Made by a program: the position numbers and the translations under genes. From IMG/VR virus record IMGVR_UViG_3300017824_001452: a stretch of DNA of 64,000 nucleotides; one strand, 5' to 3'. The stretch is from a virus. A model generated the notes under the pieces. That model was not told where the DNA came from and searched no databases. It saw nothing but the letters and a program-made list of their open reading frames with translations. Below, in pieces: positions 7,437 to 60,758 of the stretch. Every line of letters begins with the position of its first letter. Within the stretch, counting starts at the first letter, position 1.

Positions 7437-8411
7437 ATGTTTGATATACTTACGATTGTCCCAGGCAAAAAGAAGCAGACGCAGAGTGGATGGACTTCAT
7501 TCAATGCGCCTTGTTGCCATCACAATGGACATAACCCTGACAAAAGAATGCGAGGGGGAATTAAAGCAGACGGTGATGATTGGAACTATCATTGTTTTAA
7601 TTGTGGCTTTAAGTGCGGTTTCAAACTAGGCAGAGCAATTAGTAAACGCACACGTAACTTTTTATCATGGTGTAATATGCCAGACCAAGATATTAATAAA
7701 TGGTCGTTGCATTCTATTCAACACAAAGATTTGATAGATTCTATCCTACACAAAAAGAAACAACAGAAGTTACCTACGTTTAAAGAAAAGCCAATGCCAG
7801 AAGGTGAGTTGATTTATACTGCTAATAAAGATCATCAAGTGTACATTGACTACTTGAACAAAAGAGGATTACAACACAACGACTATCCTTTTATGGTTAA
7901 TCCCAATGCAGAGGGAAGACAATCGCAGGGTATAATTATCCCTTACACATATGAAAACAAAGTTGTAGGTAGTACAATAAGATTTATGGACGATAGAAAT
8001 CCTAAGTTCATAAATGATCAACAACAAGGATATGTATTTGGTACTGATTTACAAAAAGATAGTTGGGAAGTCGTATTAGTTTTTGAAGGTATTTTTGATG
8101 CTATCTCAATGAACGGTTTAGCACTGACACATGACACAATTAATGACAATCAAGTTGCTGTCATTAACAAATTGGGTAAACGTGTTATTGTTGTTCCTGA
8201 TCAGGATAAAACAGGTTTAAGTATATGTGAAAGAGCATTAGAACTAGGTTTTGATGTGTCTTTACCTAACTGGTCAGAAGATATTAAAGATGCAAATGAT
8301 GCTGTAATTAAATATGGTCGTCTGAATACTCTACTAAGTATATTAGACTCCGCAACAAACAGCAAAATTAAAGTAGAAGTTATGAGGAATAAAATTGCTA
8401 AAAGAATTTAA
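7437..8411 (+). CDS. DNA primase (gp61/DnaG-like)
   Basis: Zn-binding CCHH...HCFNC; TOPRIM EGIFDA, PDQD..G, KDAND. Confidence 0.85.
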   Translation: MFDILTIVPGKKKQTQSGWTSFNAPCCHHNGHNPDKRMRGGIKADGDDWNYHCFNCGFKCGFKLGRAISKRTRNFLSWCNMPDQDINKWSLHSIQHKDLIDSILHKKKQQKLPTFKEKPMPEGELIYTANKDHQVYIDYLNKRGLQHNDYPFMVNPNAEGRQSQGIIIPYTYENKVVGSTIRFMDDRNPKFINDQQQGYVFGTDLQKDSWEVVLVFEGIFDAISMNGLALTHDTINDNQVAVINKLGKRVIVVPDQDKTGLSICERALELGFDVSLPNWSEDIKDANDAVIKYGRLNTLLSILDSATNSKIKVEVMRNKIAKRI

Positions 8412-31570: not shown

Positions 31571-34500
31571 ATGGCACTAACATCACCAGGCGTAGAAGTA
31601 AGCATCATTGATGAAAGTCAATACTTGCCAGGCGCAACAGCATCGATTCCCTTCTTCTTGTTAGCAACAGCACAAGATAAAGCGGATCCAACATCAACAG
31701 CAACTGCGGCAGCCACAACAGCCGCAAACGCAGGTAAATTATACAGAGTAACTTCTCAACGTGATCTAGTTACTTTATATGGTAACCCATTCTTTTACAC
31801 AGCATCAAACGGTACTCCGTTGCAAGGCTATGAGTTAAATGAATATGGACTATTAGCGGCTTACTCAGCACTTGGTATTTCAAATCAAGTATTTGTATTA
31901 AGAGCAGACGTTGATCTAGCAAGTTTAGTAGGATCAACAGGTCGTCCAACAGGGGCACCACAAAACGGTTCGTTTTGGTTAAACACAACTTCTTCTACAT
32001 GGGGAATCAATGAGTTTAATTCAACAACAGGAGCATTTACAGCAAAAGCACCAATCGTTATCTCTGACTCTACTTTAGTGTCAATAGGTACACCTCTACA
32101 ATCAGTAGGAAATATCGGTGACTATGCAGTAGTTGCTATACCTAATTATAGAAACCCTAACAATGACAATGCACCTACATATTGGTACAAGAATCGTCAG
32201 AATACATGGGTTGGTTTAGATTCAGTAGACTGGTTCAAGGCATGGCCTTCAATCACTTGTCCTACTTCTAATCCTACATTAACACAAGGCGATACAATCG
32301 ACTTGATCGTTAACGGTACAAACTTAGCACAACTTACTGTATCAGCGGCTCCTAACAACACTATTTCTCAGTTAGCGGCAGACATTAACTCATTAGGTTG
32401 GGAATATGTTTCAGCGGCAGTAGTTGATAACAAACTTGAAGTTTATTCTTCACAGACAGGTGGAGATCAAGGTAGTTCAAACGTACCATTCTACATTAGA
32501 TTTGCTAACGCAACAGGTACTATCTTTACAGACTTAGGATTTACAGGTACTAACGTAACTGGCTTCCAACCAAGAGCATTATATGGTACATCTGCTCAAC
32601 AGCCATTATGGCAATCAGGACAGGCTCAGCCTGCTCCGACTGGCTCTGTATGGATTAAGGTTGACGGAACAGGATTACAACCAGTAATTTCTGAATATGA
32701 TTCTACATCATCTTCATATACTGCTAAAACACCTACTTTTGCAGACTCTGATTGGGCACAAATCTATTCAGCAGACTCAACAGGTGGACAAGCAATTCCA
32801 GCAGGAAGTGTTTATGCACAATATGGATTTAACGGTGAGTACACAGCGGCTCCAGTATACTACTTCTATAGAGTAGCAACAGGTGCAACAGTAATTAATG
32901 GTACAAACACTGCACCAGACTTTACTTCAGGACCATATGTAGCAAGAGTTCAGATTTCAACTCCAGGTTCACAAACATTAAGTACCCCTTATACATTTAA
33001 CTTGGGTGATGCAACTGATGCATCTGACTTTGTAACTGCATGGTCAGCGGCGAACATTCCTTACACTTCAGCAAGTGTAAACGATGATGGTTCAATTCAA
33101 ATTCAACACACTTCAGGTGGTGTTATTATCTTAGATGATTATGACAACGTAACAGGTGTATCTTCTGGTTTATTCTCAGAAGCCGGCTTTACAACTGCAA
33201 CAGCAGGTTGTAAGACAGGACCATTCAGAGATGATATCTCATTTACTCCTACTCAGAGTTCTACATCAGGGTCAGGTACTGCATTATCAATCGCAGTAAC
33301 TAATGACTATGGTTATTATGACTTTGATCCGGATGCAGTAGTAAACGGCGGTACAGGTCATGCTGTAGGTGACGTAGTTACTTTCTCAGGTGCAGACTTG
33401 GGCGGTGCTTCACCAGCAAATGACTTACAAGTAAAAGTTACAAGTGTTACAGCAGGCGTTGTTACATCTTATACTTTAAGTACAGGTACAGGCGCAGATG
33501 CGTTCACAACTCAGTTGTCTAACTGGAGAGAGTTCTCATTAACAACTTCAGGTGCTGATTCATTAACAGCAAACGAAGGTGCTCCGACTGCAATACCTAG
33601 CAACTTTACTAACTGGTACTATTCAACAACTGATCAAGTAGATATTATGATCAACTATGACGGTAATTGGAAGGGTTATAGCCAACAAGGTTATGATGGT
33701 AATGGTTTACCTAGCCCATCAGTCGTAAATGCAACTGATCCTAATGGACCTATCGTAACTGCTAGTGAGCCTACTACTCAAAGTGACGGCACACCATTAG
33801 TATACGGTGATCTTTGGTTAGATACTTCTGACTTAGAAAACTATCCGTTACTTTACAGATGGCAGTCAGTACAAGCAACAGGTGGCGGTAGTGCTACTGA
33901 TAAGTGGGTCTTAATTGACAACTCAGATCAAACTACACCACAAGGTATCTTGTTTAAAGATGCACGTTGGGCAACTAACGGAACAACTAACCCAGCAAAT
34001 GATCCGATGCCGACCATCAAATCATTGCTAGGAAGTGATTACTTAGATGTTGATGCTCCGTTATCATCAAATTACCCACAAGGTATGTTGCTTTGGAACA
34101 CAAGACGTTCTTCATACAACGTGAAGCAATATCGTGTAAACTACTTTAACAACGACAGATTCCCGAATGACACTTTACCAACACAGAAAGATGCATGGGT
34201 ATCTGCTTCAGGTGATGCATCTAACGGTGCAATGAATGCAGGTCGTAAGGCACAAAGAGCAATGGTAACACAAGCATTACGTTCAGCAATTGACTCTAAC
34301 GTTGCAATTAGAGACGAAGATAACTACTTCAACTTACAAGCAACACCGGGTTATCCTGAACTACAACCTAACATGATCGCATTGAACTCTGATAGAGGTG
34401 AGACTTCTTACATTGTTGGTGATACACCAATGAGACTGAAAGATGATGCAACTGAAATTCAGGCTTGGGCAACTAACGCCGCAGGTGCAACAACTACAGG

Positions 34501-35179
34501 TGAAGATGGACTTGTAAGTAGAAATACTTATATGGGTCTATTCTACCCATCAGGTATCACTAGTGATCTATCAGGTAACTTAGTTGCTGTTCCTTCATCA
34601 CACATGATGGTCAGAACTATGTTGCGTAATGACAATATTGCTTATCCTTGGTTAGCACCAGCAGGTACTAGACGTGGTATAATCGATAATGCTACAAGCA
34701 TCGGATACATCGATGACGAAGGCGAGTTTAACTCAATCAGAACACGTATTGGAATTAGAGATGTGTTATACACTAACTTTATTAACCCAATGGTATTCTT
34801 TACAGGTAATGGATTATTGAACTATGGTAACAAAACTTCATTTGATTCATCATCTGCATTAGACAGAGTAAACGTAGCAAGATTAGTTGCTTACATACGT
34901 AGACAATTAATATTAGCCGCGAGACCATTTGTCTTTGAACCTAATGACCCTCAAACAAGAAAATCTATTAAAGCAGTAGTAGAATCATTGTTCCAGGATC
35001 TAGTTTCAAAACGAGGATTATATGACTACTCAGTAGTTTGTGATGATTCTAACAACACTCCAGCAAGAATTGATCGAAATGAACTTTGGATTGACATAGC
35101 AGTAGAGCCCGTGAAAGCCGCTGAGTTTATCTACGTTCCGGTCAGAATATTCAACACTGGTGAGTTATCAGGATCTTAA
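31571..35179 (+). CDS. contractile tail sheath protein (gp18-like), enlarged
   Basis: LTSPGVEV, PWLAPAG.RRG, DRVNVARL, FEPND, VCD.SNNTP..IDRNEL, P.KAAEFI. Confidence 0.95.
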   Translation: MALTSPGVEVSIIDESQYLPGATASIPFFLLATAQDKADPTSTATAAATTAANAGKLYRVTSQRDLVTLYGNPFFYTASNGTPLQGYELNEYGLLAAYSALGISNQVFVLRADVDLASLVGSTGRPTGAPQNGSFWLNTTSSTWGINEFNSTTGAFTAKAPIVISDSTLVSIGTPLQSVGNIGDYAVVAIPNYRNPNNDNAPTYWYKNRQNTWVGLDSVDWFKAWPSITCPTSNPTLTQGDTIDLIVNGTNLAQLTVSAAPNNTISQLAADINSLGWEYVSAAVVDNKLEVYSSQTGGDQGSSNVPFYIRFANATGTIFTDLGFTGTNVTGFQPRALYGTSAQQPLWQSGQAQPAPTGSVWIKVDGTGLQPVISEYDSTSSSYTAKTPTFADSDWAQIYSADSTGGQAIPAGSVYAQYGFNGEYTAAPVYYFYRVATGATVINGTNTAPDFTSGPYVARVQISTPGSQTLSTPYTFNLGDATDASDFVTAWSAANIPYTSASVNDDGSIQIQHTSGGVIILDDYDNVTGVSSGLFSEAGFTTATAGCKTGPFRDDISFTPTQSSTSGSGTALSIAVTNDYGYYDFDPDAVVNGGTGHAVGDVVTFSGADLGGASPANDLQVKVTSVTAGVVTSYTLSTGTGADAFTTQLSNWREFSLTTSGADSLTANEGAPTAIPSNFTNWYYSTTDQVDIMINYDGNWKGYSQQGYDGNGLPSPSVVNATDPNGPIVTASEPTTQSDGTPLVYGDLWLDTSDLENYPLLYRWQSVQATGGGSATDKWVLIDNSDQTTPQGILFKDARWATNGTTNPANDPMPTIKSLLGSDYLDVDAPLSSNYPQGMLLWNTRRSSYNVKQYRVNYFNNDRFPNDTLPTQKDAWVSASGDASNGAMNAGRKAQRAMVTQALRSAIDSNVAIRDEDNYFNLQATPGYPELQPNMIALNSDRGETSYIVGDTPMRLKDDATEIQAWATNAAGATTTGEDGLVSRNTYMGLFYPSGITSDLSGNLVAVPSSHMMVRTMLRNDNIAYPWLAPAGTRRGIIDNATSIGYIDDEGEFNSIRTRIGIRDVLYTNFINPMVFFTGNGLLNYGNKTSFDSSSALDRVNVARLVAYIRRQLILAARPFVFEPNDPQTRKSIKAVVESLFQDLVSKRGLYDYSVVCDDSNNTPARIDRNELWIDIAVEPVKAAEFIYVPVRIFNTGELSGS

Positions 35180-38545: not shown

Positions 38546-39172
38546 ATGAAAAGTTTAAAACATTACATTGCAGAGTCAGTCCACACTTATGATTGCACAA
38601 TCAAACTTGCTGGTGACTGTAGTAAAAATTTCTTAGAGTTATTTAAACATAACTTAAATAAGTTTGAGCCTAAATCAATTAAAGGGCCAACTTCAACTCC
38701 TATTATGAAATCACCATATGGTTTTCCTAATTTATCAAACGAACCAGTACACATCTTTAAGTGTGAGTTTGCATATCCCGTAACAGAACCAATGGTACAA
38801 CAATTAGCACAATTGTTAGGTCACAATATTAATTACGTAAGAATGGTCAATACAGCATTTGATGATAGCATCGATAAAGAACTTGTCGGCTACGAAAATG
38901 AAATGAAAGACACACCTCTCTTACAAAATGAAGAAATGAATGACAATGGAAAAGAAGCCAGTGAAGAATATGGTGATAAGTACTTAGACAGCATTCATAA
39001 ACATGCAGAACATAAAAACGTAGGTAAAGTAGGTTTGCCTGCTGATCAAAAGAACACTAAAGATGCTTTTGATCCTTGGAAGCCATGGTCAGATGATTCA
39101 ATTAAAGGTCAAAAGAGTCCGATGACTGACGTTAAAAGAGGACCCAAGCCTGAAACATCAGCAGGGTACTAA
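38546..39172 (+). CDS. putative internal head protein
   Basis: MKSLKHYIAE resembles the T4 capsid-targeting sequence; late promoter 38518-38523. Confidence 0.55.
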   Translation: MKSLKHYIAESVHTYDCTIKLAGDCSKNFLELFKHNLNKFEPKSIKGPTSTPIMKSPYGFPNLSNEPVHIFKCEFAYPVTEPMVQQLAQLLGHNINYVRMVNTAFDDSIDKELVGYENEMKDTPLLQNEEMNDNGKEASEEYGDKYLDSIHKHAEHKNVGKVGLPADQKNTKDAFDPWKPWSDDSIKGQKSPMTDVKRGPKPETSAGY

Positions 39173-39182
39173 GGAAGACATT

Positions 39183-42100
39183 ATGGATTTTAAAGACATC
39201 TTAAACAAATTCGACAAAGCATCAAAAGAAGAATCTATTGTCGAAACTACTCCTAAAAGACCAGCAAACATGTTGACTGAATCAACAGAGTCTGGTGAAG
39301 TTGTAGAAGTTGTTGAAGGAGTTCAAGTACCTTCATTAAAAAATATGTTTGAAGAACTTTCACTAGAACCAGCAAAGCCTGGTGCACAAACAATTCATAA
39401 AGACGGTGAAGTAATCGGAACTGTTTCTAATCCAGCAGTTGCTAATCAAATGTCACAAGCAATCGACAAAGGCGAATTACAAATCGGTCAAGAAATGCAA
39501 GAAGCAGAACAACTTGACGAACTTGCTCCTTTAGCGGCATTAGGGCCAGCACTTATGACTGGTGCTAGAGTGGCAGGTCCTTGGTTAGCAAAACGTGGCG
39601 CTCAAATGATTAGTGGAGTCGCCAGAGGCGCAGGTAACTATGCTAAAAAGAACCCAATCAAAACTGCTGTAGGTACAGGGGTAGCCGGCACAGAGCAAGG
39701 TAGAGAACTTGCAGGCAACGTCAAAGACGGCGCTGTCGGAATGTATAACTTAACCAACACAACATTTGAAAAAATGAATGATATGATCGATTCAGGTAAA
39801 CACACGTTTGACCAAGCCTCTCAAAAAATTGCAGACTTAGGTGACGGCGCAGGTGGTATGATTAGAGGCGCAATCGGTGATGCCGCATTTGATACAGTTA
39901 AAAGAACAGCATCAACATATGGTCTTCCTTTACTAGCCGCAGTAGCATTACTATACGGCGGAAAGAAAGTTTTAGATAAAGTAATGGACAAAGACGAAGA
40001 TACTGTTAGAGAAGCAAAAGATTGGATCTCGGGTGCTATCAAAGACCCAGGTGCATTCTCAGCAAAAGCAAAAAGACATGGAATGACAACTAAAGCATTT
40101 GCTAATCACGTATTAGCAAACAAAGATGATTTCCCTGCAAAAACAGAAAAACAAGCAAATCTTGCTAAAACATTAGGCAAGATGAAAGAGGGCGAAATGC
40201 CCCCACAAGGTCCAGGACAAGCATCTCCTTTAACATTTGAAGGTGCTCAAAATCCACCGGATGACGGTTCACATAATTCATCTAACGATGAAAAAGGCAA
40301 CGCCGCGGCAAACGCCGCATTGGCAGCCAACGATGCTGATACACCGCAACTTGTAAAAGAAAAAGCAAAAGGTAAAGTAAGCAAGTCGAGTAAATTACCT
40401 AGTATTTCAAAAGTGAAATCTATGTGTAACGAAGGGCTGTCTACTAAAGAAATACAACAACTGCACCCTAAGTGCAACCAACAAGAACTTAATATTATGA
40501 TTAAAAATACTAAAACAAACTTAAAAGAAGGCGCAGATCACATTCTGAAGGCCGCAAAGCACATGGGTCATGCTCATGGTTTATGTAAAGGATCTTATGC
40601 ATGTCCACATGATGCAGGTTCTGAAGGTGCAAGAGCATACCACGAAGGCTACAAAAAAGGTCTTGACGAAGCATGTGGCATGGGAATCAAAAACGAACCA
40701 ATCGCAGGTATGGAAGAAGGCGTACTCGGTGGAGTAGGCGGTGCTATTGCAGGATCTAAATTAGGTGGCATGGCAGGCACAGCAATCGGTGGTTCAATCG
40801 GTGGCGTTCCTGGAGCAACTATAGGTAAGGCAGCAGGCGCGGCACTAGGTGGAATCGCAGGTGATAAATTAACAGGCGACGGCATCTTTGAAGAACCAGC
40901 AGATGAAGTTGTAGATACTATGGCATCTTACGGTGCAATGGGCGAAGCAGAATCTTCACCAGACGGAGACGTTGGTGCTGATGATGACGGTGCATATGAC
41001 AAATATGACTGGGACGCACAAACTGTAGCACGTAAAGGCATTGACGAAGATGAAATGGAAGAAGGTAATGCATTTACAGGCGCAATGGCAGGAAAAGAAA
41101 AAGGTGAAAAGTTCACAGTAGGCGACAAAACATTTACAAAAACATCAGAAGCCGCTACATTAGAAGAAGATGAGTGGACTTTTGAGTCTTTAGAAAAAGA
41201 ATTAAACTCACACTTAGTCGAAAGCACAGAAGAATCAAAAGAACAACTTGACGAAGGCTATACAATGTCTATTACTCAAGGCGAAGAAAATCAGCCAGAC
41301 AGAGTAAGTGTTAATGCCACAGATGCAGAAGCAGACAAGTTAATCAAGTTTGTTAAAGACGTAGGCTTAGGTAACTATGGTGATGCAGAAGTATTAGATG
41401 CACCAGGTGAAGTTGCAGACGTATCATTTTATGGTAGCCCTGAAGTAGAAGTAGAGCCTCAAAGTTCACACGATGACATGCTCAAGTTAATGGGTATTGT
41501 AGACGTAGACGGTGACTATGAAGATGAAGTAGAAGCACCCGGCGTAACAGACGTTGACGTACAAGTAGATGAAAAGTCATGTGACGAATGTGGTGGCGGA
41601 CATAGCATGGAAGAAGGCTGTGGAGACAAAGCATACGAAGATCAAGGTTATGATGACAAAGAAGATGAGTCATTAGGTATGAGAACTGGTAAAGAATCAG
41701 GTAAAAAACAGTCTATGAAAGACCGTAGAGATGATTCTTATGGTAAGTTCGGTAAACGTGACTCTGAACATAGAGATGTTTCATTAGAAGAACAAGAAAA
41801 AGATGCAGGATTATACGACAAGTATGATTGGGACGCATCTACAGTTGCTAAAAAAGGCATTGACGAAGAATCTGATGCTGAAAGAGACGATCATGCAGAA
41901 CGTGCAGGTAAAGAAGTTGCACGACACGCAAAGTACGACGGTCGTAAGCACCCAGGAAGAGATGGTGAAGACATCGTTAAAGATTTAGAATACGATGACT
42001 GGAAAGATAAGCATCATATGGAAGAAGATCAAGGCTATGATGACAAAGAAGATGAGTCATTAGGTATGAGAACTGGTAAAGAGTCTGATAAGAAGCAAAG

Positions 42101-42926
42101 TATGAAAGATCGTAGAGATGATTCATATGGTAAGTTTGGTAAGAGAGATGAAGAACATAGAGAAAAATCTTTAGAAGAAACTCTTGCTCAGTTAGATGAA
42201 CTTGCTCAGTTAGATGAAAAGCAAGGTTATGATGACAGAGAAGACGAACAACTAGGTATGAAAGACGGCAAAGAATCTGATAAGAAACAATCAATGAAAG
42301 ATCGCCGTGATGATTCACGTGGTAAGTTTGGTAAAAGAGATAAAGAAGATGACAATAAACCTCGTTCTTTAGAAGAAAATCTTAGAACTTTAGACTTATT
42401 AGCAGAAGTAGGCGCAGAAACTTCAGAAGAACCTACTCAACCATTATCACAACATGATGATGAGAGACTTTTAACTAAAGAAGGCGCAGAGGATGCCCCT
42501 AAGGACTCTATAAACGATGGTGAGAACGAAGAAATCACTGAGATGGAAACTGATGCTCAAAGAGAATTCAAAGTAGCAGAAGGTGAAGATAAGCCAGACT
42601 TTGCTGACATCGATGATGATGGCGACAAAGATGAGTCTATGAAAAAAGCCGCTAAAGATAAGAAAGAAAAAGTTGATGAATGGGCAAATGATGCAGGTAA
42701 GAAAGGTACTGATACAGCATTTGAACAAGACATTGAGTTTATGACTAAAGTTATCTCTGGTGGTCTTAACAAGCAGAAGTCAACAGGTCAAACAACTATC
42801 CCAGTTATTGCTGGTCAAGAAGACAGAATGGGATATAATGGTGCTGACGTTGTTAAAGAGGGTTCTGTTGTTTCATCTAATGGATTCGCAACTATTTTAA
42901 ACAAGTTAGATAGTATCAAAGAATAA
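39183..42926 (+). CDS. modular internal head polyprotein (putative prohead-protease substrate)
   Basis: Many hydrophobic-x-E sites bounding distinct and repeated modules; acidic linkers. Confidence 0.65.
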   Translation: MDFKDILNKFDKASKEESIVETTPKRPANMLTESTESGEVVEVVEGVQVPSLKNMFEELSLEPAKPGAQTIHKDGEVIGTVSNPAVANQMSQAIDKGELQIGQEMQEAEQLDELAPLAALGPALMTGARVAGPWLAKRGAQMISGVARGAGNYAKKNPIKTAVGTGVAGTEQGRELAGNVKDGAVGMYNLTNTTFEKMNDMIDSGKHTFDQASQKIADLGDGAGGMIRGAIGDAAFDTVKRTASTYGLPLLAAVALLYGGKKVLDKVMDKDEDTVREAKDWISGAIKDPGAFSAKAKRHGMTTKAFANHVLANKDDFPAKTEKQANLAKTLGKMKEGEMPPQGPGQASPLTFEGAQNPPDDGSHNSSNDEKGNAAANAALAANDADTPQLVKEKAKGKVSKSSKLPSISKVKSMCNEGLSTKEIQQLHPKCNQQELNIMIKNTKTNLKEGADHILKAAKHMGHAHGLCKGSYACPHDAGSEGARAYHEGYKKGLDEACGMGIKNEPIAGMEEGVLGGVGGAIAGSKLGGMAGTAIGGSIGGVPGATIGKAAGAALGGIAGDKLTGDGIFEEPADEVVDTMASYGAMGEAESSPDGDVGADDDGAYDKYDWDAQTVARKGIDEDEMEEGNAFTGAMAGKEKGEKFTVGDKTFTKTSEAATLEEDEWTFESLEKELNSHLVESTEESKEQLDEGYTMSITQGEENQPDRVSVNATDAEADKLIKFVKDVGLGNYGDAEVLDAPGEVADVSFYGSPEVEVEPQSSHDDMLKLMGIVDVDGDYEDEVEAPGVTDVDVQVDEKSCDECGGGHSMEEGCGDKAYEDQGYDDKEDESLGMRTGKESGKKQSMKDRRDDSYGKFGKRDSEHRDVSLEEQEKDAGLYDKYDWDASTVAKKGIDEESDAERDDHAERAGKEVARHAKYDGRKHPGRDGEDIVKDLEYDDWKDKHHMEEDQGYDDKEDESLGMRTGKESDKKQSMKDRRDDSYGKFGKRDEEHREKSLEETLAQLDELAQLDEKQGYDDREDEQLGMKDGKESDKKQSMKDRRDDSRGKFGKRDKEDDNKPRSLEENLRTLDLLAEVGAETSEEPTQPLSQHDDERLLTKEGAEDAPKDSINDGENEEITEMETDAQREFKVAEGEDKPDFADIDDDGDKDESMKKAAKDKKEKVDEWANDAGKKGTDTAFEQDIEFMTKVISGGLNKQKSTGQTTIPVIAGQEDRMGYNGADVVKEGSVVSSNGFATILNKLDSIKE
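41640..42377 (+). repeat. three copies of a 51-53-aa QGYDD...GKFGKRD module
   Basis: 41640-41792, 42027-42179, 42219-42377; plus exact 18-nt tandem CTTGCTCAGTTAGATGAA x2 at 42183-42218. Confidence 0.95.
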
Positions 42927-43032: not shown

Positions 43033-46000
43033 ATGGCACAAAGAAATATTGACTTCGGAGCATTCCCTGACGATCCAGATGCAGATGCAATACGATCGGC
43101 GTTTGAAAAAGTTCAGTTAAATTTTACAGAAGTATTTGCAGGACTAGGTGATCAAGCAGTTGTCTCAGTCAATAAAACTGCAGGACCTGGCATATATTTA
43201 GTTAATGGTTCTCCAGTAGGTAATGTTGTATTAGGTGCAAACATTGCTTGTGTACAGTTTTCTTCAACAACATTATCAGTAGGTCGTTCACCGGGTACAG
43301 GTCCAGGTTCTGCGACTATTACTGATTCTACTCAAACATTATATATTGATTTACCTAACACAATAGCAAACGTTACTGACGTTGTAGTATCAAATAGTGT
43401 ACAAGGCAACGCAATTATAGGTAATCTATCAGGTGATTTTGGATACGTATTAGCAAATGCATCATCTGGAAATGGTAATATAGATGCTAACAATATAACA
43501 TTGACAGGTGCTGTTGTAGCATCTAATGTTAGTGGTAATGGTGCTGGGTTATCAGCACTCACAGGTTCAAATGTAACTGGACAAGTAGGGAACGCATTAG
43601 TTGCAGGTACAGTGTACACTGCGGCGCAACCTAACATTACTTCAGTAGGAACTTTAACAACACTAGATGTAATGTCAACAGTAACTGCAACAGCATTTAC
43701 TGCAAATACAGGTTTATTTACTGGCGACGGCGGTGGTTTATCAAACATCGTTGGTGCAAATGTAACAGGAGAAGTTACTAACTCTGCGACAGCAAACGCA
43801 GTAGCAGGCGCAAACGTAAGTGGAGAAGTAGCATTCTCCGCAGTAGCAAATTCAGTAGCAGGATCAAATGTATCTGGTGCAGTCTCATTCGCAACAACTG
43901 CTAATGCAGTCGCCGGAGCAAATGTCTCTGGTGAAGTCGCATTTGCCGCTACAGCAAATAGTGTTGCTGGCGCAAACATATCAGGCGAAGTTGCATTCGC
44001 CGCTACTGCTAATTCAGTTGCAGGTTCTAATGTCAGCGGCGAAGTATCATTTGCACAAGTAGCAAATTCAGTCGCAGGTGCAAACGTAACAGGTGAAGTA
44101 AGTTTTGCAAGTACTGCAAATAGTGTTGCAGGAGCAAATGTCTCAGGCGCAGTAGCCAATGCTACACATGCATTATCAGCAGACTCAGCAAATGCAGTAG
44201 CAGGTGCTAACGTAACTGGTGAAGTAGGTTTTGCGGCTGTTTCAAATTCAGTAGCAGGATCAAATGTTTCAGGTGAAGTCGGATTTGCCGCAGTTGCTAA
44301 TAGTGTTGCTGGTGCAAATGTAACTGGTGAAGTATCAAATGCCGCAACTGCAAATGCAGTCGATGGCGCCAACGTATCGGGTACGGTTGCAAATGCTACA
44401 CATGCAACCACAGCAAATACGGTAGTTGATGCGGTACAATCAAATATTACAACTGTAGGTACATTAAGTTCATTAGATGTATCAGGCAATCTTAGTGCTG
44501 GCAATGTAACAACAACTGGTACATTTACTGGTGATGGTGGTGGTTTATCAAACATCTCTGTATCAACAGGATCTTATATCGAAAACGGTACAAGTGAAGC
44601 AAGACTTGACACTGACGGTCCTTTCAGAGTTACAGTTGGTGGAACTGCAAACGTATTACAAGTTAACAATACAGGTACAGAAGTAGCAGTAACAGGCTCA
44701 ATGTCTGTATCAGGTGGATTTGATAACAACATAGACTTTAACAGCACATCTAATTTAGGGCCAGTAGGCAACGTAACAATTACAGGTGGTGCTACTGGAG
44801 CATTCTTAATGACAGATGGCTCTGGTACTTTAACATGGGACACAGCAACTTTAGTTCCAGCACAAGGCGCAGATACACAAATTATATTCAATGACGGTGG
44901 AAGTACATATGCCGGTAACACTGGACTAACGTTCAATAAAACATCAGGTAATGTGGCAATACCAGGCAACTTAGCAGTAACAAGTGCTGTATCTGGTACA
45001 ACACTTGAAGGAAGTTTATTAACAAATGCACAACCAAACATTACAAGCCTTGGTACATTAACAAGTTTAATTTTAAGTGGTAATCTCAATACTAACAGTG
45101 ATCTTATCACTAACGCAGGTAACATTACAATTGCTAGTGGTACAGGATCATTTATAGGAAATGGTGCAGGATTAACAAATATTACAGGAGCAAACGTAAG
45201 TGAAGTTCCTTTAGCAACATTAGCAACTACTGCTACAACAGCAAACGCAGTTGCAGGTGCTAATGTATCAGGAGAAGTTCCCTTTGCACAAGTAGCCAAT
45301 TCAGTTGCTGGTGCAAATGTTTCAGGCGAAGTTGCATTCGCCGCTACTGCTAACTCAGTAGCAGGTGCTAACGTTTCTGGAGCAGTTGCAAGTGCTACTA
45401 CAGCAACAACTGCCACAACAGCAGATACCGTAACAACAGCATCACAACCCAACATCACTAGTGTTGGAACGTTATCGTCATTATCTGTTACAGGTAATGT
45501 GTCTGCAGGAAATGTATCGGGCACTGGTGGTGTCTTTACATACGTATCAGGAGATGGCGCTAACTTAACAGCAATAGACGGACAACAAGTTACAGGTGAA
45601 GTAGACTTTGCACAAGTAGCAAATAGTGTCGCAGGTGCTAATGTATCAGGGACTGTCGCATTAGCAACAACCGCAGGAACTGTGTCTACATCAGCACAGC
45701 CAAACATCACATCTGTTGGAACTTTAACAGTATTAGGTGTAAATGGTATTGTAACAGCACAATCGTTTACAGCAAATACAGGGTTATTTAACGGTGATGG
45801 TGGTGGACTATCTAATGTGGCGGCAGCCAATATTAGTGGTATAGTAGCAAACGCAACATATGCAACATCAGCAGGTAGTGCGGCATTAGCATTAGATATT
45901 ACAGGAGCAACACAACCTAATATTACTAGTGTAGGCACACTAACAAGTTTAACAGTGTCTGGTAACATAACTAACCAGACTCACATTATTAAAGATGTAA

Positions 46001-46302
46001 CAACCGCAACAGCAGGTGGCACCGATCAATCAGGAGCAACAGCATTAAGTGGAGCAGATATATTCTCAGTTACTACACCTAGCAATAACAACGGTGTTAG
46101 ATTGATGGCTGCTACTCCTGGCTTATGTATATACATCAAAAATTTAGATCCAACAGATACATTAAAAGTATATCCAGCATCTAATGATGCGATTGACGGT
46201 AACGGAACTAATGGAGCAATGTCAATAGGTCCTTTAGGACAAATTCAATTTGTAGCCCACAGTTCATCACAATGGTATACTGTCGGCGCAACATATGCAT
46301 AA
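43033..46302 (+). CDS. tail/baseplate fibre protein with 18-aa tandem repeats
   Basis: N-terminal D.IRSAFEKV..NFTE anchor; VAGANVSGEVAFAATANS repeats; late promoter 43005-43010. Confidence 0.8.
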   Translation: MAQRNIDFGAFPDDPDADAIRSAFEKVQLNFTEVFAGLGDQAVVSVNKTAGPGIYLVNGSPVGNVVLGANIACVQFSSTTLSVGRSPGTGPGSATITDSTQTLYIDLPNTIANVTDVVVSNSVQGNAIIGNLSGDFGYVLANASSGNGNIDANNITLTGAVVASNVSGNGAGLSALTGSNVTGQVGNALVAGTVYTAAQPNITSVGTLTTLDVMSTVTATAFTANTGLFTGDGGGLSNIVGANVTGEVTNSATANAVAGANVSGEVAFSAVANSVAGSNVSGAVSFATTANAVAGANVSGEVAFAATANSVAGANISGEVAFAATANSVAGSNVSGEVSFAQVANSVAGANVTGEVSFASTANSVAGANVSGAVANATHALSADSANAVAGANVTGEVGFAAVSNSVAGSNVSGEVGFAAVANSVAGANVTGEVSNAATANAVDGANVSGTVANATHATTANTVVDAVQSNITTVGTLSSLDVSGNLSAGNVTTTGTFTGDGGGLSNISVSTGSYIENGTSEARLDTDGPFRVTVGGTANVLQVNNTGTEVAVTGSMSVSGGFDNNIDFNSTSNLGPVGNVTITGGATGAFLMTDGSGTLTWDTATLVPAQGADTQIIFNDGGSTYAGNTGLTFNKTSGNVAIPGNLAVTSAVSGTTLEGSLLTNAQPNITSLGTLTSLILSGNLNTNSDLITNAGNITIASGTGSFIGNGAGLTNITGANVSEVPLATLATTATTANAVAGANVSGEVPFAQVANSVAGANVSGEVAFAATANSVAGANVSGAVASATTATTATTADTVTTASQPNITSVGTLSSLSVTGNVSAGNVSGTGGVFTYVSGDGANLTAIDGQQVTGEVDFAQVANSVAGANVSGTVALATTAGTVSTSAQPNITSVGTLTVLGVNGIVTAQSFTANTGLFNGDGGGLSNVAAANISGIVANATYATSAGSAALALDITGATQPNITSVGTLTSLTVSGNITNQTHIIKDVTTATAGGTDQSGATALSGADIFSVTTPSNNNGVRLMAATPGLCIYIKNLDPTDTLKVYPASNDAIDGNGTNGAMSIGPLGQIQFVAHSSSQWYTVGATYA
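43750..44410 (+). repeat. ~12 tandem 54-nt (18-aa) coding repeats
   Basis: VAG(A/S)NV(S/T)GEVxFAxxANS; further copies near 45240-45390 and 45590-45660. Confidence 0.9.
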
Positions 46303-46334
46303 TGTTTTGCATCTTTAGAAAGGATAAAAAACAA

Positions 46335-46796
46335 ATGAAATTATCAAAGAATTTTACACTCACAGAGTTTGAAAAAAGTCAAACTGCTATACGTCAGGGT
46401 TTAGATAACACTATGCCTGAAGAACATTTAGAAAATGCAAAAGCATTATGTGAAAACGTATTACAAAAAGTAAGAGATCATTTTGGACCTGTAATTATTA
46501 ATAGTGGATATCGTGGATCTGCTCTTAATAAAGCAGTAGGTGGAAGTGCAAAATCACAACACTGTAAGGGTCAAGCCGCAGACATAGAAATACATGGAGT
46601 ATCTAATTACGATCTTGCTAAATGGATTGAAAAAAATACAGATTTTGATCAAGTAATTTTAGAATTCTACACTCCGGGTATACCTGATTCAGGTTGGGTG
46701 CATGTTACTTACAATACTGCAGGTAATAGAGGCAAGTCTTTAACTGCATCTAAAGTCGATGGCAGAACACATTATTCTTTAGGTCTCACTAAATGA
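46335..46796 (+). CDS. peptidase M15A (putative endolysin)
   Basis: LSKNFTLTEF, SGYR...LN.AVGG...SQH..G.AAD, WVH; AAGGA RBS supports ATG 46335. Confidence 0.85.
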   Translation: MKLSKNFTLTEFEKSQTAIRQGLDNTMPEEHLENAKALCENVLQKVRDHFGPVIINSGYRGSALNKAVGGSAKSQHCKGQAADIEIHGVSNYDLAKWIEKNTDFDQVILEFYTPGIPDSGWVHVTYNTAGNRGKSLTASKVDGRTHYSLGLTK

Positions 46797-52999: not shown

Positions 53000-53377
53000 A
53001 TGGCAATAGGACTTAAATCTAATATCAATCGTATACATTGTAAATCATTGAGAGCAATCAGTGATAAAATTATTGTACATGGCATGGAGTTCGGTGAACA
53101 GAAACTTGCATCTGGTATCGTGCTAGTAGACGATGATAAAAAGTCTACAGGAATCAAGCCTAGATGGGCACAAGTATACTCTATCGGTCCACAGGCAAAT
53201 ACTGAACTTAAAGAAGGACAATATGTAATGGTAGCACATGGTCGTTGGACACGTGGTATTAACATTACAGACGAAGAAGGGGACAAGACAATTCGTTGTG
53301 TTGACCCAAAAGATTGCTTGTTAGTAAGTGATGAACCACAGACTAACATGGCATATGGAGATAAAGAAGGAGCATAG
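53000..53377 (+). CDS. groES: GroES-like co-chaperonin
   Basis: RAISDKIIV...E..LASGIVL...V.SIGP....LKEGQYV. Confidence 0.85.
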   Translation: MAIGLKSNINRIHCKSLRAISDKIIVHGMEFGEQKLASGIVLVDDDKKSTGIKPRWAQVYSIGPQANTELKEGQYVMVAHGRWTRGINITDEEGDKTIRCVDPKDCLLVSDEPQTNMAYGDKEGA

Positions 53378-58475: not shown

Positions 58476-60758
58476 TTGAACACATCACCAGAAATTGAAA
58501 ATATTATCTCTAGGGCAATCGAAACTGCAAAGTCCTATAATCATCAGTATGTTACTATTGAGCATTTGCTTCACGCATTAGTAACACATCAACCGTTTAA
58601 AAAAGTATTAAATCAATTTAATGTTGATACTGATTTAATGATTGGTGAAATAGAAGCATACTTGAATGGATTACATGCTATCGAATCTAAAGACCCTGAG
58701 TGTGTTCCTAAGAAAACTAATTCACTAGAACGTGTAATGAATAGAGGTGTTACACAAGTTCTATTTACAGGTCGTAGACAAGTCACTACTATGGATCTGT
58801 ATCTATCGATTGCAACTGAAGGAAACACCCATGCACATTATTTCTTATTAAAGTATGGTGTAAACAAAACTCAGTTTATTGAATTTTGGCAAAAGAATTA
58901 TAGACATCAGGATAGTCAAAACATCAGTCAAGACCAAGCAGATGATATTTTAGAAGAATACACAACTAATTTAACTAAATTGGCTAGAGACGATAAACTA
59001 GAACCTGTCATAGGACGTGTGTCTGAAATTGATGACATTATTAATGTTCTAGCAAAACGTTTTAAAGCAAACGTATTAATGGTAGGTGATCCGGGTGTAG
59101 GTAAAACAGCAATTGCAGAAGGTATTGCACAAGCAGTTGTTAACAAAGAAGTACCCGAGTTCTTAGACGGACATGAAGTCTATTCATTAGAGATTGGTAA
59201 CTTACTTGCTGGATCAAAATATCGCGGTGAGTTTGAAGAAAAAGTTAAAGAAGTCATTATGGCTTTAGAAGTTAAAAAGAATTGTATCTTATTCATTGAC
59301 GAAGCCCACACTATGGGAGGCGCTGGATCAACATCGAATGGCTCAGTTGATTTTGCAAACATGATTAAGCCTGCTATTACTAAAGGAACTCTCAAAGTAA
59401 TCGCATCTACTACATGGGAAGAATACTATGAATCGTTTGAAAAAGACAGAGCCCTCATGCGTAGATTCTATCGTGTTTCAATTGATGAACCTTCACATGA
59501 TACTACAATTAGAATTTTACGTGGTTTATCCGATAGATTAAATGACTTCCACGATGTCAACATTACAGAAGATGCAATCGAAGCCGCAGTTGAAATGGCT
59601 GACAGATACATACACGAAAGAAAGAATCCAGATAAGTCTATTGACTTACTTGATGCCGCTTGTGCAAAGCAACGTGTAGCAGAAAACAAAGGTGTTGATA
59701 TCACTAAGACATTGATTTTTGATCAAGTAGAGAAGTTCACAGGCGTTCCTGCTGACAAACTTAAAGGTGATAATGTAGATCGTATTACTAACTTAGACGT
59801 TAATGTTAAAAGTAAGTTGTATGGTCAAGATGATGTAGTTGATAATGTAATCGAAAGAGTTTATGTATCGTTTGCAGGAATCGGCAACGAAACTAAACCT
59901 ATCGCAAGTTTCTTATTTTTAGGACCAACAGGCACGGGAAAAACAGAATTGGCTAAACTGCTGTCTAGTAACTTAGATATGCCACTGCTCAAATACGATA
60001 TGTCCGAGTATTCTGAGAAACACAGTGTAAGCAGTTTGATAGGACCTCCCCCGGGTTATGTAGGTTTTAGTGATTCACAAGTACAAGGCGGACGTTTGAT
60101 ATCAGACTTAAGTAAACAACCTCATTCAATCATGTTGTTTGATGAAGTTGAGAAAGCACACCCTGATATCTTTAATATTTTCTTACAGATGTTAGACGAA
60201 GGTACGATCACTGGGTCTAATGGTAAGCAAGTATCATGTAAGAACTGTTTAATCATTCTCACATCTAACTTAGGTAGTGCAGACGGAGAACGTTCAAACA
60301 TCGGATTCGGTGATACGGACAAAGTAGGCGAAGATGAAAAAGCAATGAAAAACTTCTTTAAGCCAGAGTTTAGAAATAGACTTGACATGGTTTGTAAGTT
60401 TGGTAAACTTGATAAACTATCTATTAAAAAGATTGTTGTTAAATTTGTTGCTGACCTACAAAAAGCACTGCTTGATAAACATAATATCACTCTTAACTTT
60501 AGTGAAGATGCAGTTGATTACTTAGCAGACGTAGGTTATGATAGCAAGTTGGGAGCAAGACCATTAGCAAGAAAAATTGATGAACTTGTAAGAGTCCCAT
60601 TGAGTAAAAAGATTTTATTTGAGAAAATCAAAGATGCTAATGTCATGTGTGTTATTGATCCAGACACTGGAGAGATTGATTTTGCTTCAACGAAAAAACA
60701 GGTTGCTCAAGTAGGTGACGATGGTATCATTGAAGTAGAAGATTCAGACAACATATAA
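58476..60758 (+). CDS. clpA: ClpA-like Hsp100 unfoldase
   Basis: N-domain, two AAA+ modules (GDPGVGKT, GPTGTGKT), short linker, IGF loop; late promoter 58448-58453. Confidence 0.9.
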   Translation: MNTSPEIENIISRAIETAKSYNHQYVTIEHLLHALVTHQPFKKVLNQFNVDTDLMIGEIEAYLNGLHAIESKDPECVPKKTNSLERVMNRGVTQVLFTGRRQVTTMDLYLSIATEGNTHAHYFLLKYGVNKTQFIEFWQKNYRHQDSQNISQDQADDILEEYTTNLTKLARDDKLEPVIGRVSEIDDIINVLAKRFKANVLMVGDPGVGKTAIAEGIAQAVVNKEVPEFLDGHEVYSLEIGNLLAGSKYRGEFEEKVKEVIMALEVKKNCILFIDEAHTMGGAGSTSNGSVDFANMIKPAITKGTLKVIASTTWEEYYESFEKDRALMRRFYRVSIDEPSHDTTIRILRGLSDRLNDFHDVNITEDAIEAAVEMADRYIHERKNPDKSIDLLDAACAKQRVAENKGVDITKTLIFDQVEKFTGVPADKLKGDNVDRITNLDVNVKSKLYGQDDVVDNVIERVYVSFAGIGNETKPIASFLFLGPTGTGKTELAKLLSSNLDMPLLKYDMSEYSEKHSVSSLIGPPPGYVGFSDSQVQGGRLISDLSKQPHSIMLFDEVEKAHPDIFNIFLQMLDEGTITGSNGKQVSCKNCLIILTSNLGSADGERSNIGFGDTDKVGEDEKAMKNFFKPEFRNRLDMVCKFGKLDKLSIKKIVVKFVADLQKALLDKHNITLNFSEDAVDYLADVGYDSKLGARPLARKIDELVRVPLSKKILFEKIKDANVMCVIDPDTGEIDFASTKKQVAQVGDDGIIEVEDSDNI

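Follow-up and report, generated by a model that had tools for sequence, protein, structure and literature searches.

A conserved mini-domain with a predicted RMF-like fold in a giant modular phage protein: probably a reused hairpin rather than a ribosome switch

Ribosome modulation factor (RMF; PF04957; PDB 4V8G, 6H4N, 9IOT, and 2JRM) of Gammaproteobacteria is a stand-alone, basic protein of 55 amino acids (aa) with a helix-loop-helix of about 50 residues. Its helix α1 sits in a cleft of 16S rRNA helices, and Arg3, Lys5, Arg8, Arg11, and Arg15 bond the phosphate backbone of this rRNA (Beckert et al. 2018, bioRxiv 10.1101/382572). RMF-like hairpins are common in phages, where they occur as small uncharacterised proteins. 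The internal proteins of phage T4 represent a second system of relevance here. They carry a 10-residue N-terminal prohead-targeting sequence, in which residues 4 and 7 serve targeting and residues 8 and 10 cleavage, and T4 gp21 cuts after [LI]-x-Glu (PMC9026906). Here, we describe a conserved domain of about 50 residues that shows likeness to both systems. It is encoded in a 64,000-nucleotide virus sequence (IMG/VR record IMGVR_UViG_3300017824_001452; the whole stretch is called the window) and resides in P0001, a modular acidic open reading frame (ORF) of 1247 aa identified from the ORF list and its translation (39183..42926, + strand, as are all features of P0001 given below). An earlier note, made from the sequence alone, had drawn attention to an RMF-like block in this protein and had suggested that an injected RMF mimic could bias ribosomes against host mRNAs led by a Shine-Dalgarno (SD) sequence.

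The conserved domain and its likeness to RMF

The proposed block of 47 aa between NLKE and GLDE was recovered exactly: positions 40530-40670 are in frame and encode G450 to E496 of P0001. Based on family alignments, AlphaFold2 (AF2) modelling, structure search, and hhalign, the domain extends over aa 450-499 (40530..40679), that is, the 47-aa block plus a conserved three-residue tail, which reads Cys-Tyr-Gly in most relatives and Ala-Cys-Gly in the window copy. A HMMER search of 1.84 billion representatives retrieved 95 of them at E<1e-3. Each carries the domain inside a protein of 400-1200 aa, and no free-standing version of ~55 aa was found among them. Four short matches (P0008, P0024, P0036, and P0037) were considered as stand-alone versions and rejected, since each is a fragment that runs on into the following module. 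Only one copy is present in the window. Six residues (A458, H465, Y486, G489, G493, and L494) are invariant in 96 members, and another seven (G462, L467, H487, K491, D495, E496, and C497) are nearly so. The domain retains ~50% sequence identity across otherwise highly variable proteins. Residues ~450-499 are a real, conserved mini-domain of predicted helix-loop-helix structure.

The first predicted helix comprises aa 452-467 (40536..40583; DSSP on the model, H13-28 of the 440-505 piece), contains Ala458, Gly462, and His465, and is aligned by hhalign with residues 7-22 of RMF helix α1. It is followed by an inter-helix loop of aa 468-480 with Cys474-Pro475 (40584..40622; alignment counts). The second predicted helix (aa 481-497, 40623..40673; model and alignment) holds Tyr486, His487, Gly489, Lys491, Gly493, Leu494, Asp495, and Glu496, and its Y-x2-G-[YF]-K aligns with W40-x2-G43-W44-R45 of RMF. 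Core positions common to the domain and RMF are Leu, Ala, and Gly in helix 1, the loop Cys, and the aromatic-x2-Gly-aromatic-basic signature of helix 2. The RMF-type pattern that had been claimed for the block is shown by E. coli RMF, as read from NC_000913, and is correctly described for the window copy except for one spacing: nine residues, not ten, separate the His after Cys-Pro from the Tyr, and the equivalent spacing in E. coli RMF is eight residues.

We modelled the domain with AF2 using an alignment of the domain family (63 sequences). The resulting model had a predicted local distance difference test (pLDDT) value of 76.4 and showed the two-helix hairpin of RMF, with helices at 452-467 and 481-497; a model from the single sequence (pLDDT 53.8) was too poor for use. 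In a Foldseek search against 350,542 PDB chains, RMF occupied ranks 1-3 (2jrm, 9iot_y, and 6h4n_v), with probabilities of 0.75-0.98, TM values of 0.57-0.73, and a root-mean-square deviation (rmsd) of 1.8-4.6 Å. The same predicted fold was found in BFVD for many phage proteins of 44-120 aa (probability up to 1.00, rmsd 1.1-3 Å, 43-54 columns). These include A0A2I7RHV6, A0A2K9VHQ5 of Pseudomonas phage Bjorn, and A0A385EFF1 of Caulobacter phage CcrBL9, the latter being named 'Ribosome modulation factor', and phrog_26995, phrog_10492, and phrog_13106 are grouped with such small RMF-like hairpin proteins. They resemble our domain in being phage-borne and in their predicted fold, but they are free-standing, whereas the window domain is a bead in a giant putative polyprotein flanked by protease-like sites, and the sequence links between them are weak (E 1e-5 to 0.05).

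Comparison of profiles gave a signal in the same direction. When the domain family alignment was compared with an alignment of 24 RMF sequences by hhalign, a score of 24.06 was obtained (P 1.6e-4, probability 50%), in the register that the earlier note had proposed. None of 600 column-shuffled controls reached this score (mean 9.7, sd 2.2, max 19.0), and reversed alignments scored 14.5-15.8. Likewise, a hidden Markov model (HMM) of RMF gave a median of 5.0 bits and a maximum of 14.2 on 96 real modules. Shuffled modules scored lower (median -0.5, 95th percentile 2.8, maximum 8.9), and reversed ones reached at most 3.3. A bridge is provided by phrog_26995: true RMFs match it over positions 99-150 (E 0.025-0.046), and nine of the 63 family members match it as well, in a consistent register (best E 2.9e-5; for P0046, the match covers positions 109-144). 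A search of five related jumbo-phage records with phrog_26995 yielded no candidates, and its control matched nowhere either. The window copy itself had no PF04957 or NCBIfam match at E<=10 and was not detected when the six-frame translation of the window was scanned with the RMF HMM. Searches of PDB sequences with the block sequence or with the family profile did not return RMF. Only one of the 63 members matched Pfam RMF, below the cut-off (E 0.021), so that the domain stays under all curated thresholds.

Some of these results speak against a kinship with RMF. In absolute terms, all the sequence signals are weak, the hhalign probability is only 50%, and the Foldseek E-values are 0.3-2.6, although weak E-values are expected for 50 residues. 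Moreover, the similarity in motif may have drawn AlphaFold towards the RMF structure. Because the Foldseek E-values are weak and the hairpin is a simple fold, we consider an RMF-like fold of the domain likely and place common ancestry with RMF-like proteins a clear step lower, as the moderately favoured option. The idea that the block is RMF-like was borne out for fold and profile, as judged by Foldseek and hhalign, and probably also for distant ancestry. The domain probably belongs, as a distant member, to a broad superfamily of Rmf-like hairpins, which in many phages occur as small proteins of uncharacterised function.

The surface of the domain and a putative metal site

The likeness to RMF does not extend to the surface. 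The positions that align with RMF Arg3, Lys5, Arg8, Arg11, and Arg15 are occupied by Glu449 (93/93), Met or Ala451, Arg or Lys454 (in 62 of 94), Ala457, and Glu or Met461, so that four of the five basic positions contacting rRNA are lost in the domain family; at position 454, the window copy has Ile. The family has a net charge of -2.3 ± 1.1, compared to +6.5 ± 0.9 for 24 RMFs, and the window copy has a net charge of 0 with six His. The loop Cys474 and Pro475, both invariant in the RMF alignment, occur in 69/95 and 9/96 members, respectively; the Cys-Pro identity is lineage-specific and confined to close relatives of the window. In helix 2, the Trp-x2-Gly-Trp-Arg of RMF is replaced by Tyr486-x2-Gly489-Tyr/Phe490-Lys491, each at least 93% conserved, which retains like chemistry with other residues. 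Judged from these alignments, the domain is re-surfaced: acidic, His-rich, and devoid of the rRNA-binding Arg and Lys of RMF. Judged by four of the features compared, the domain does not belong to the RMF family, which consists of stand-alone basic proteins, unlike an acidic domain embedded in a 1247-aa phage protein.

A further difference concerns conserved His and Cys positions, which are present in the domain and have no counterpart in RMF. His465 is found in 96/96 members, His487 in 91, Cys497 in 87, and the loop Cys474 in 69. The 21 members with Gly at position 474 have His at 472 in 14 cases and at 470 in 16 cases, and His472 does not occur in any of the 69 members with Cys474. In the lineage of the window, Cys497 is replaced by Ala and Cys498 is present instead. 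These compensating changes suggest a four-ligand metal site that clamps the hairpin, with His465, His487, Cys497 (or Cys498), and the loop Cys474 or His470/472 as candidate ligands. We put this assignment forward tentatively, at somewhat less than even confidence, from the pattern of residue exchange.

The carrier protein, its putative processing, and competing explanations

The P0001 family is built from three conserved modules separated by variable charged linkers, namely the RMF-fold domain, aa 628-800, and aa 1120-1217. Directly before the domain lies L447-K448-E449 (40521..40529), a conserved [VIL]-x-E sequence that could serve as a site for a prohead protease of the T4 type. According to alignment counts, position 447 is V, I, or L in 92/93 sequences, position 449 is E in 93/93, and position 450 (P1') is G, S, or A in 83/93. 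In the AF2 model this site is placed outside the helices, in a linker of lower confidence. The second border of the earlier note, G493-L494-D495-E496 (40659..40670), is also well conserved (G96, L96, D94, and E93, followed by C87, Y82, and G87). In the model, GLDE is located at the end of helix 2, which reaches to residue 497, and is then followed by the conserved Cys-Tyr-Gly, and for this reason it may belong to the fold rather than to a linker. Two more conserved modules are preceded by similar sites. The first comprises an [MVF]-x-E site at aa 625-627, followed by G, together with the conserved 'GNAF...' module at aa 628-655 (41055..41147; E627 in 54/54, G628 in 53/54, and F631 in 54/54). 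The second is the C-terminal module of aa 1167-1217 with the motif ISGGLNK.KSTGQTTIPV (42681..42833), preceded by L/V-x-E in most members. No family was matched by either the 'GNAF..GKTF' module (41064-41147) or the C-terminal one. Across 180 family members, [LIV]-x-E is enriched 1.54-fold over shuffled sequences, compared to 0.73-1.10 for five control motifs. The description of the block as embedded in a polyprotein is supported in that the protein is modular with conserved hydrophobic-x-Glu borders; its GLDE border falls into a predicted helix.

Two other segments of P0001 deserve mention. Positions 41640-42377 encode three copies of a charged repeat of ~50 aa (QGYDD.EDE.LGM..GKES.KKQSMKDRRDDS.GKFGKRD) and a unit of the type YDKYDWDA..V..KGIDE that is repeated twice; these repeats are poorly conserved beyond close relatives (coverage 7-14 of 95). 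A separate module at 40020-40187 (aa 280-335) matches phrog_20603 (E 5e-16) and shares 49% identity with a small ORF of the Thermus phages P23-45, P74-26, and G20c. The overall composition of P0001 is rich in G (11%), D (11%), E (11%), and K (10%).

Evidence from relatives and from the neighbouring gene is consistent with processing in the head. Three complete related genomes of 335-349 kb encode a Peptidase_S77 of the gp21 type (E ~1e-28). Immediately upstream of P0001, an ORF of 208 aa (38546..39172, + strand) starts with MKSLKHYIAE, which resembles the capsid-targeting sequence MKTYQEFIAE of T4 IPII/IPIII (read from NC_000866) in having an aromatic residue at position 7 and Ile8-Ala9-Glu10. 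The N-terminus of P0001 itself, MDFKDILNKF..IVE, bears only a loose likeness to the start of T4 IPI, MKTFKEF. The product of the 208-aa ORF is homologous to PA5oct gp202 (E 2e-8), annotated as a virion protein by electrospray ionization tandem mass spectrometry (ESI-MS/MS), and P0001 is syntenic with gp203 of the same phage, which is likewise a virion protein detected by mass spectrometry. Despite this synteny, BLASTP gave no sequence similarity between P0001 and gp203, nor between the downstream 1089-aa ORF and PA5oct gp204. From the cleavage-like sites, the S77 protease of the relatives, and the targeting-like decapeptide upstream, we infer that P0001 is a capsid-targeted polyprotein cut into mini-domains. 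On this sequence-based argument, P0001 is probably part of the virion and may be located inside the head, while proteolytic release of the domain stands evenly balanced.

Such an arrangement would resemble that of T4 IPI, IPII, IPIII, and Alt in four respects: [VIL]-x-Glu sites followed by a small residue, an S77 protease in relatives, a targeting-like decapeptide in the neighbouring ORF, and diverse small cargo domains. The internal proteins of T4, however, are single, small, and basic, whereas P0001 is an acidic chain of great length that may comprise a dozen or more modules. In sequence, P0001 does not resemble any of the T4 internal proteins.

Taken together, the following explanation can be proposed. 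The P0001 polyprotein would be taken into the prohead, where the Peptidase S77 prohead protease would cut at the conserved [VIL]-x-Glu sites before Gly, one of them directly upstream of the domain. The freed domain of ~50 residues would remain inside the capsid and pass into the cell together with the DNA, in the manner of the T4 internal proteins, and a metal ion bound by the conserved His/Cys set would clamp the hairpin. In the cell, the domain would most likely bind a positively charged protein partner and not the 16S rRNA backbone. As a whole (an RMF-fold bead, re-surfaced, released from a polyprotein, injected, and with a partner other than rRNA), we favour this explanation by a slight degree; delivery of the domain into the host, taken by itself and resting on the analogy with T4, is only a tentative part of it. 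Some observations weigh on the other side. The GLDE site lies within predicted helix 2. No protease gene was found in the 64-kb window when the ORFs of the protease region of the relatives were compared with it by tblastn. Finally, the P0001 gene is located in a neighbourhood of tail genes, and the protease gene is far off in the relatives.

In a competing explanation, the likeness to RMF arose by convergence on a simple helical hairpin. The domain would then serve the structure or assembly of the particle and act only inside it, via protein-protein contacts. It could be a component of a prohead core or scaffold, or part of a tail protein resembling a tape measure, with fragments that are discarded or inert. 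Such hairpins are a common arrangement, the E-values are weak, and the window copy has no RMF match by sequence. P0001 also resembles the T4 core proteins, from which gp21 generates small peptides (PMC9026906), in being highly charged and of low complexity. Its gene follows tube and tail-completion-like genes, the protein has glycine-zipper segments, as do some tape measure or ejection proteins, and one relative is named YcfJ-like by its source. Both position and length of P0001 fit a tape measure, but its composition is acidic, Gly-rich, and not coiled-coil-like, and searches of Pfam, PHROGs, and NCBIfam with P0001 gave no tape-measure, scaffold, or core family. Mere convergence is also difficult to reconcile with RMF coming out on top of two independent structure searches in a register that agrees with the profile alignment, with the systematically higher RMF HMM scores of real modules over shuffled and reversed ones, and with the link through phrog_26995. 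Moreover, the ~50% identity of the domain amid highly variable proteins argues for a specific function. We therefore regard convergence as unlikely, though it retains more weight than the two ribosome-related explanations that follow.

According to the original proposal, the released peptide would work as a mimic of RMF: after injection, it would bind close to the anti-SD sequence on the 30S subunit and bias translation against SD-led host mRNAs. Indeed, no structure matches better than RMF, profile comparison singles out no other family, the window copy even has the Cys-Pro of RMF, and its Tyr486-x2-Gly-Tyr-Lys parallels RMF Trp40-x2-Gly-Trp-Arg. In addition, P0001 plausibly travels in the virion. 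But the residues through which RMF contacts the rRNA phosphates (10.1101/382572) are replaced, including one by an invariant Glu, the net charge is inverted, and the Cys-Pro is not conserved in the family. A K-rich basic stretch does occur, but it lies upstream of the cleavage-like site and outside the domain. Because the surface is acidic and the contact residues are lost, an RMF-type block of the anti-SD site is not expected, and the claim of mimicry at this site was not supported. The supporting statement that many genes of the phage are leaderless was half true. An SD core (GGAG, GAGG, or AGGA at -20..-4) precedes 29 of 58 ORFs, compared to a background of 9%, and the SD-led ORFs include P0001 as well as late structural genes such as the sheath and tube genes. 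A handful of ORFs, starting at 7437, 15223, 51792, and 57614, lie 5-9 nt after TATAAT-like boxes without an SD core and may give rise to leaderless or very short-leader mRNAs. Overall, the sequence data make any targeting of the ribosome improbable, and a functional RMF mimic no less so. Equally speculative is a variant in which a metal-clamped RMF-fold peptide, packed in the head, cut by the protease, and injected, engages the translation machinery or an RMF-related target via its surface of inverted charge. Candidate targets would be, for example, ribosomal protein partners of RMF such as S1, S7, or S21, or the regulatory partners of RMF. If this were true, the phage would inject the domain to modulate translation or hibernation in its host.

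Genome setting and meaning of the finding

The window comes from a giant marine phage, which sequence comparison places among the jumbo myophages as a relative of PA5oct and Atu_ph07. At 1202 aa, its tail sheath (31571-35179) is unusually long. The sheath proteins of Sinorhizobium phage Phosso, Agrobacterium phage Atu_ph07, and Pseudomonas phage PA5oct align with only about 56-61% of it, at ~45% identity, which points to a sizeable insertion. Next come tube, tube-like, and head-closure-like genes, and P0001 is located downstream of all these. The relatives of P0001 are all metagenomic 'hypothetical proteins' on contigs of up to ~349 kb; a TARA ocean sample is among their sources. Among 50,697 phage records, the P0001 gene had no megablast match, and the domain was absent from cultured phages in a tblastn search with the P0001 protein. 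The sole match in the latter search was a stretch of 57 aa (aa 280-336) common to Thermus phages, which lies outside the domain. One distant relative of P0001 carries Pfam DUF3008 (PF11450).

A few neighbouring genes deserve mention in their own right. The 148-aa ORF at 37573-38019 matches phrog_218 'head closure' (E 6e-44) as well as endonuclease PHROGs. Since Pfam Tn7_TnsA-like_N is found in the corresponding protein of a related contig, a nuclease fold may be hidden behind the label 'head closure'. Downstream of P0001, the 1089-aa ORF (43033-46302) contains repeated 'NV(S/T)GEV' units and is fibre-like, and its end is overlapped by a 174-aa ORF (46272-46796) matching the endolysin/peptidase family phrog_894 (E 1.5e-47). 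Farther along, the window encodes a full-length ClpA-like ATP-dependent protease ATPase (58476-60758; phrog_4871, E 3e-234), and a GroES-like ORF is located in the vicinity (53000-53377).

Our literature search found nothing relevant on an RMF-like ejected protein of phages or jumbo phages. The new element of the present case is the setting: here, the predicted RMF fold occurs as one conserved unit of a giant polyprotein, which is probably processed and probably part of the virion. What it adds to the RMF-like hairpins of phages are borders of the protease type and a possible metal clamp around the fold. The RMF fold has probably been reused here and does not represent a ribosome switch. This calls for caution, since an RMF-like pattern in a phage protein is not evidence for control of hibernation unless the basic rRNA-binding surface is kept. 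With ~50 residues and a clear fold prediction, the domain is tractable for testing. Should cleavage and ejection of the polyprotein take place, jumbo phages would have a compact way of delivering a dozen or more different mini-proteins at the first moment of infection.

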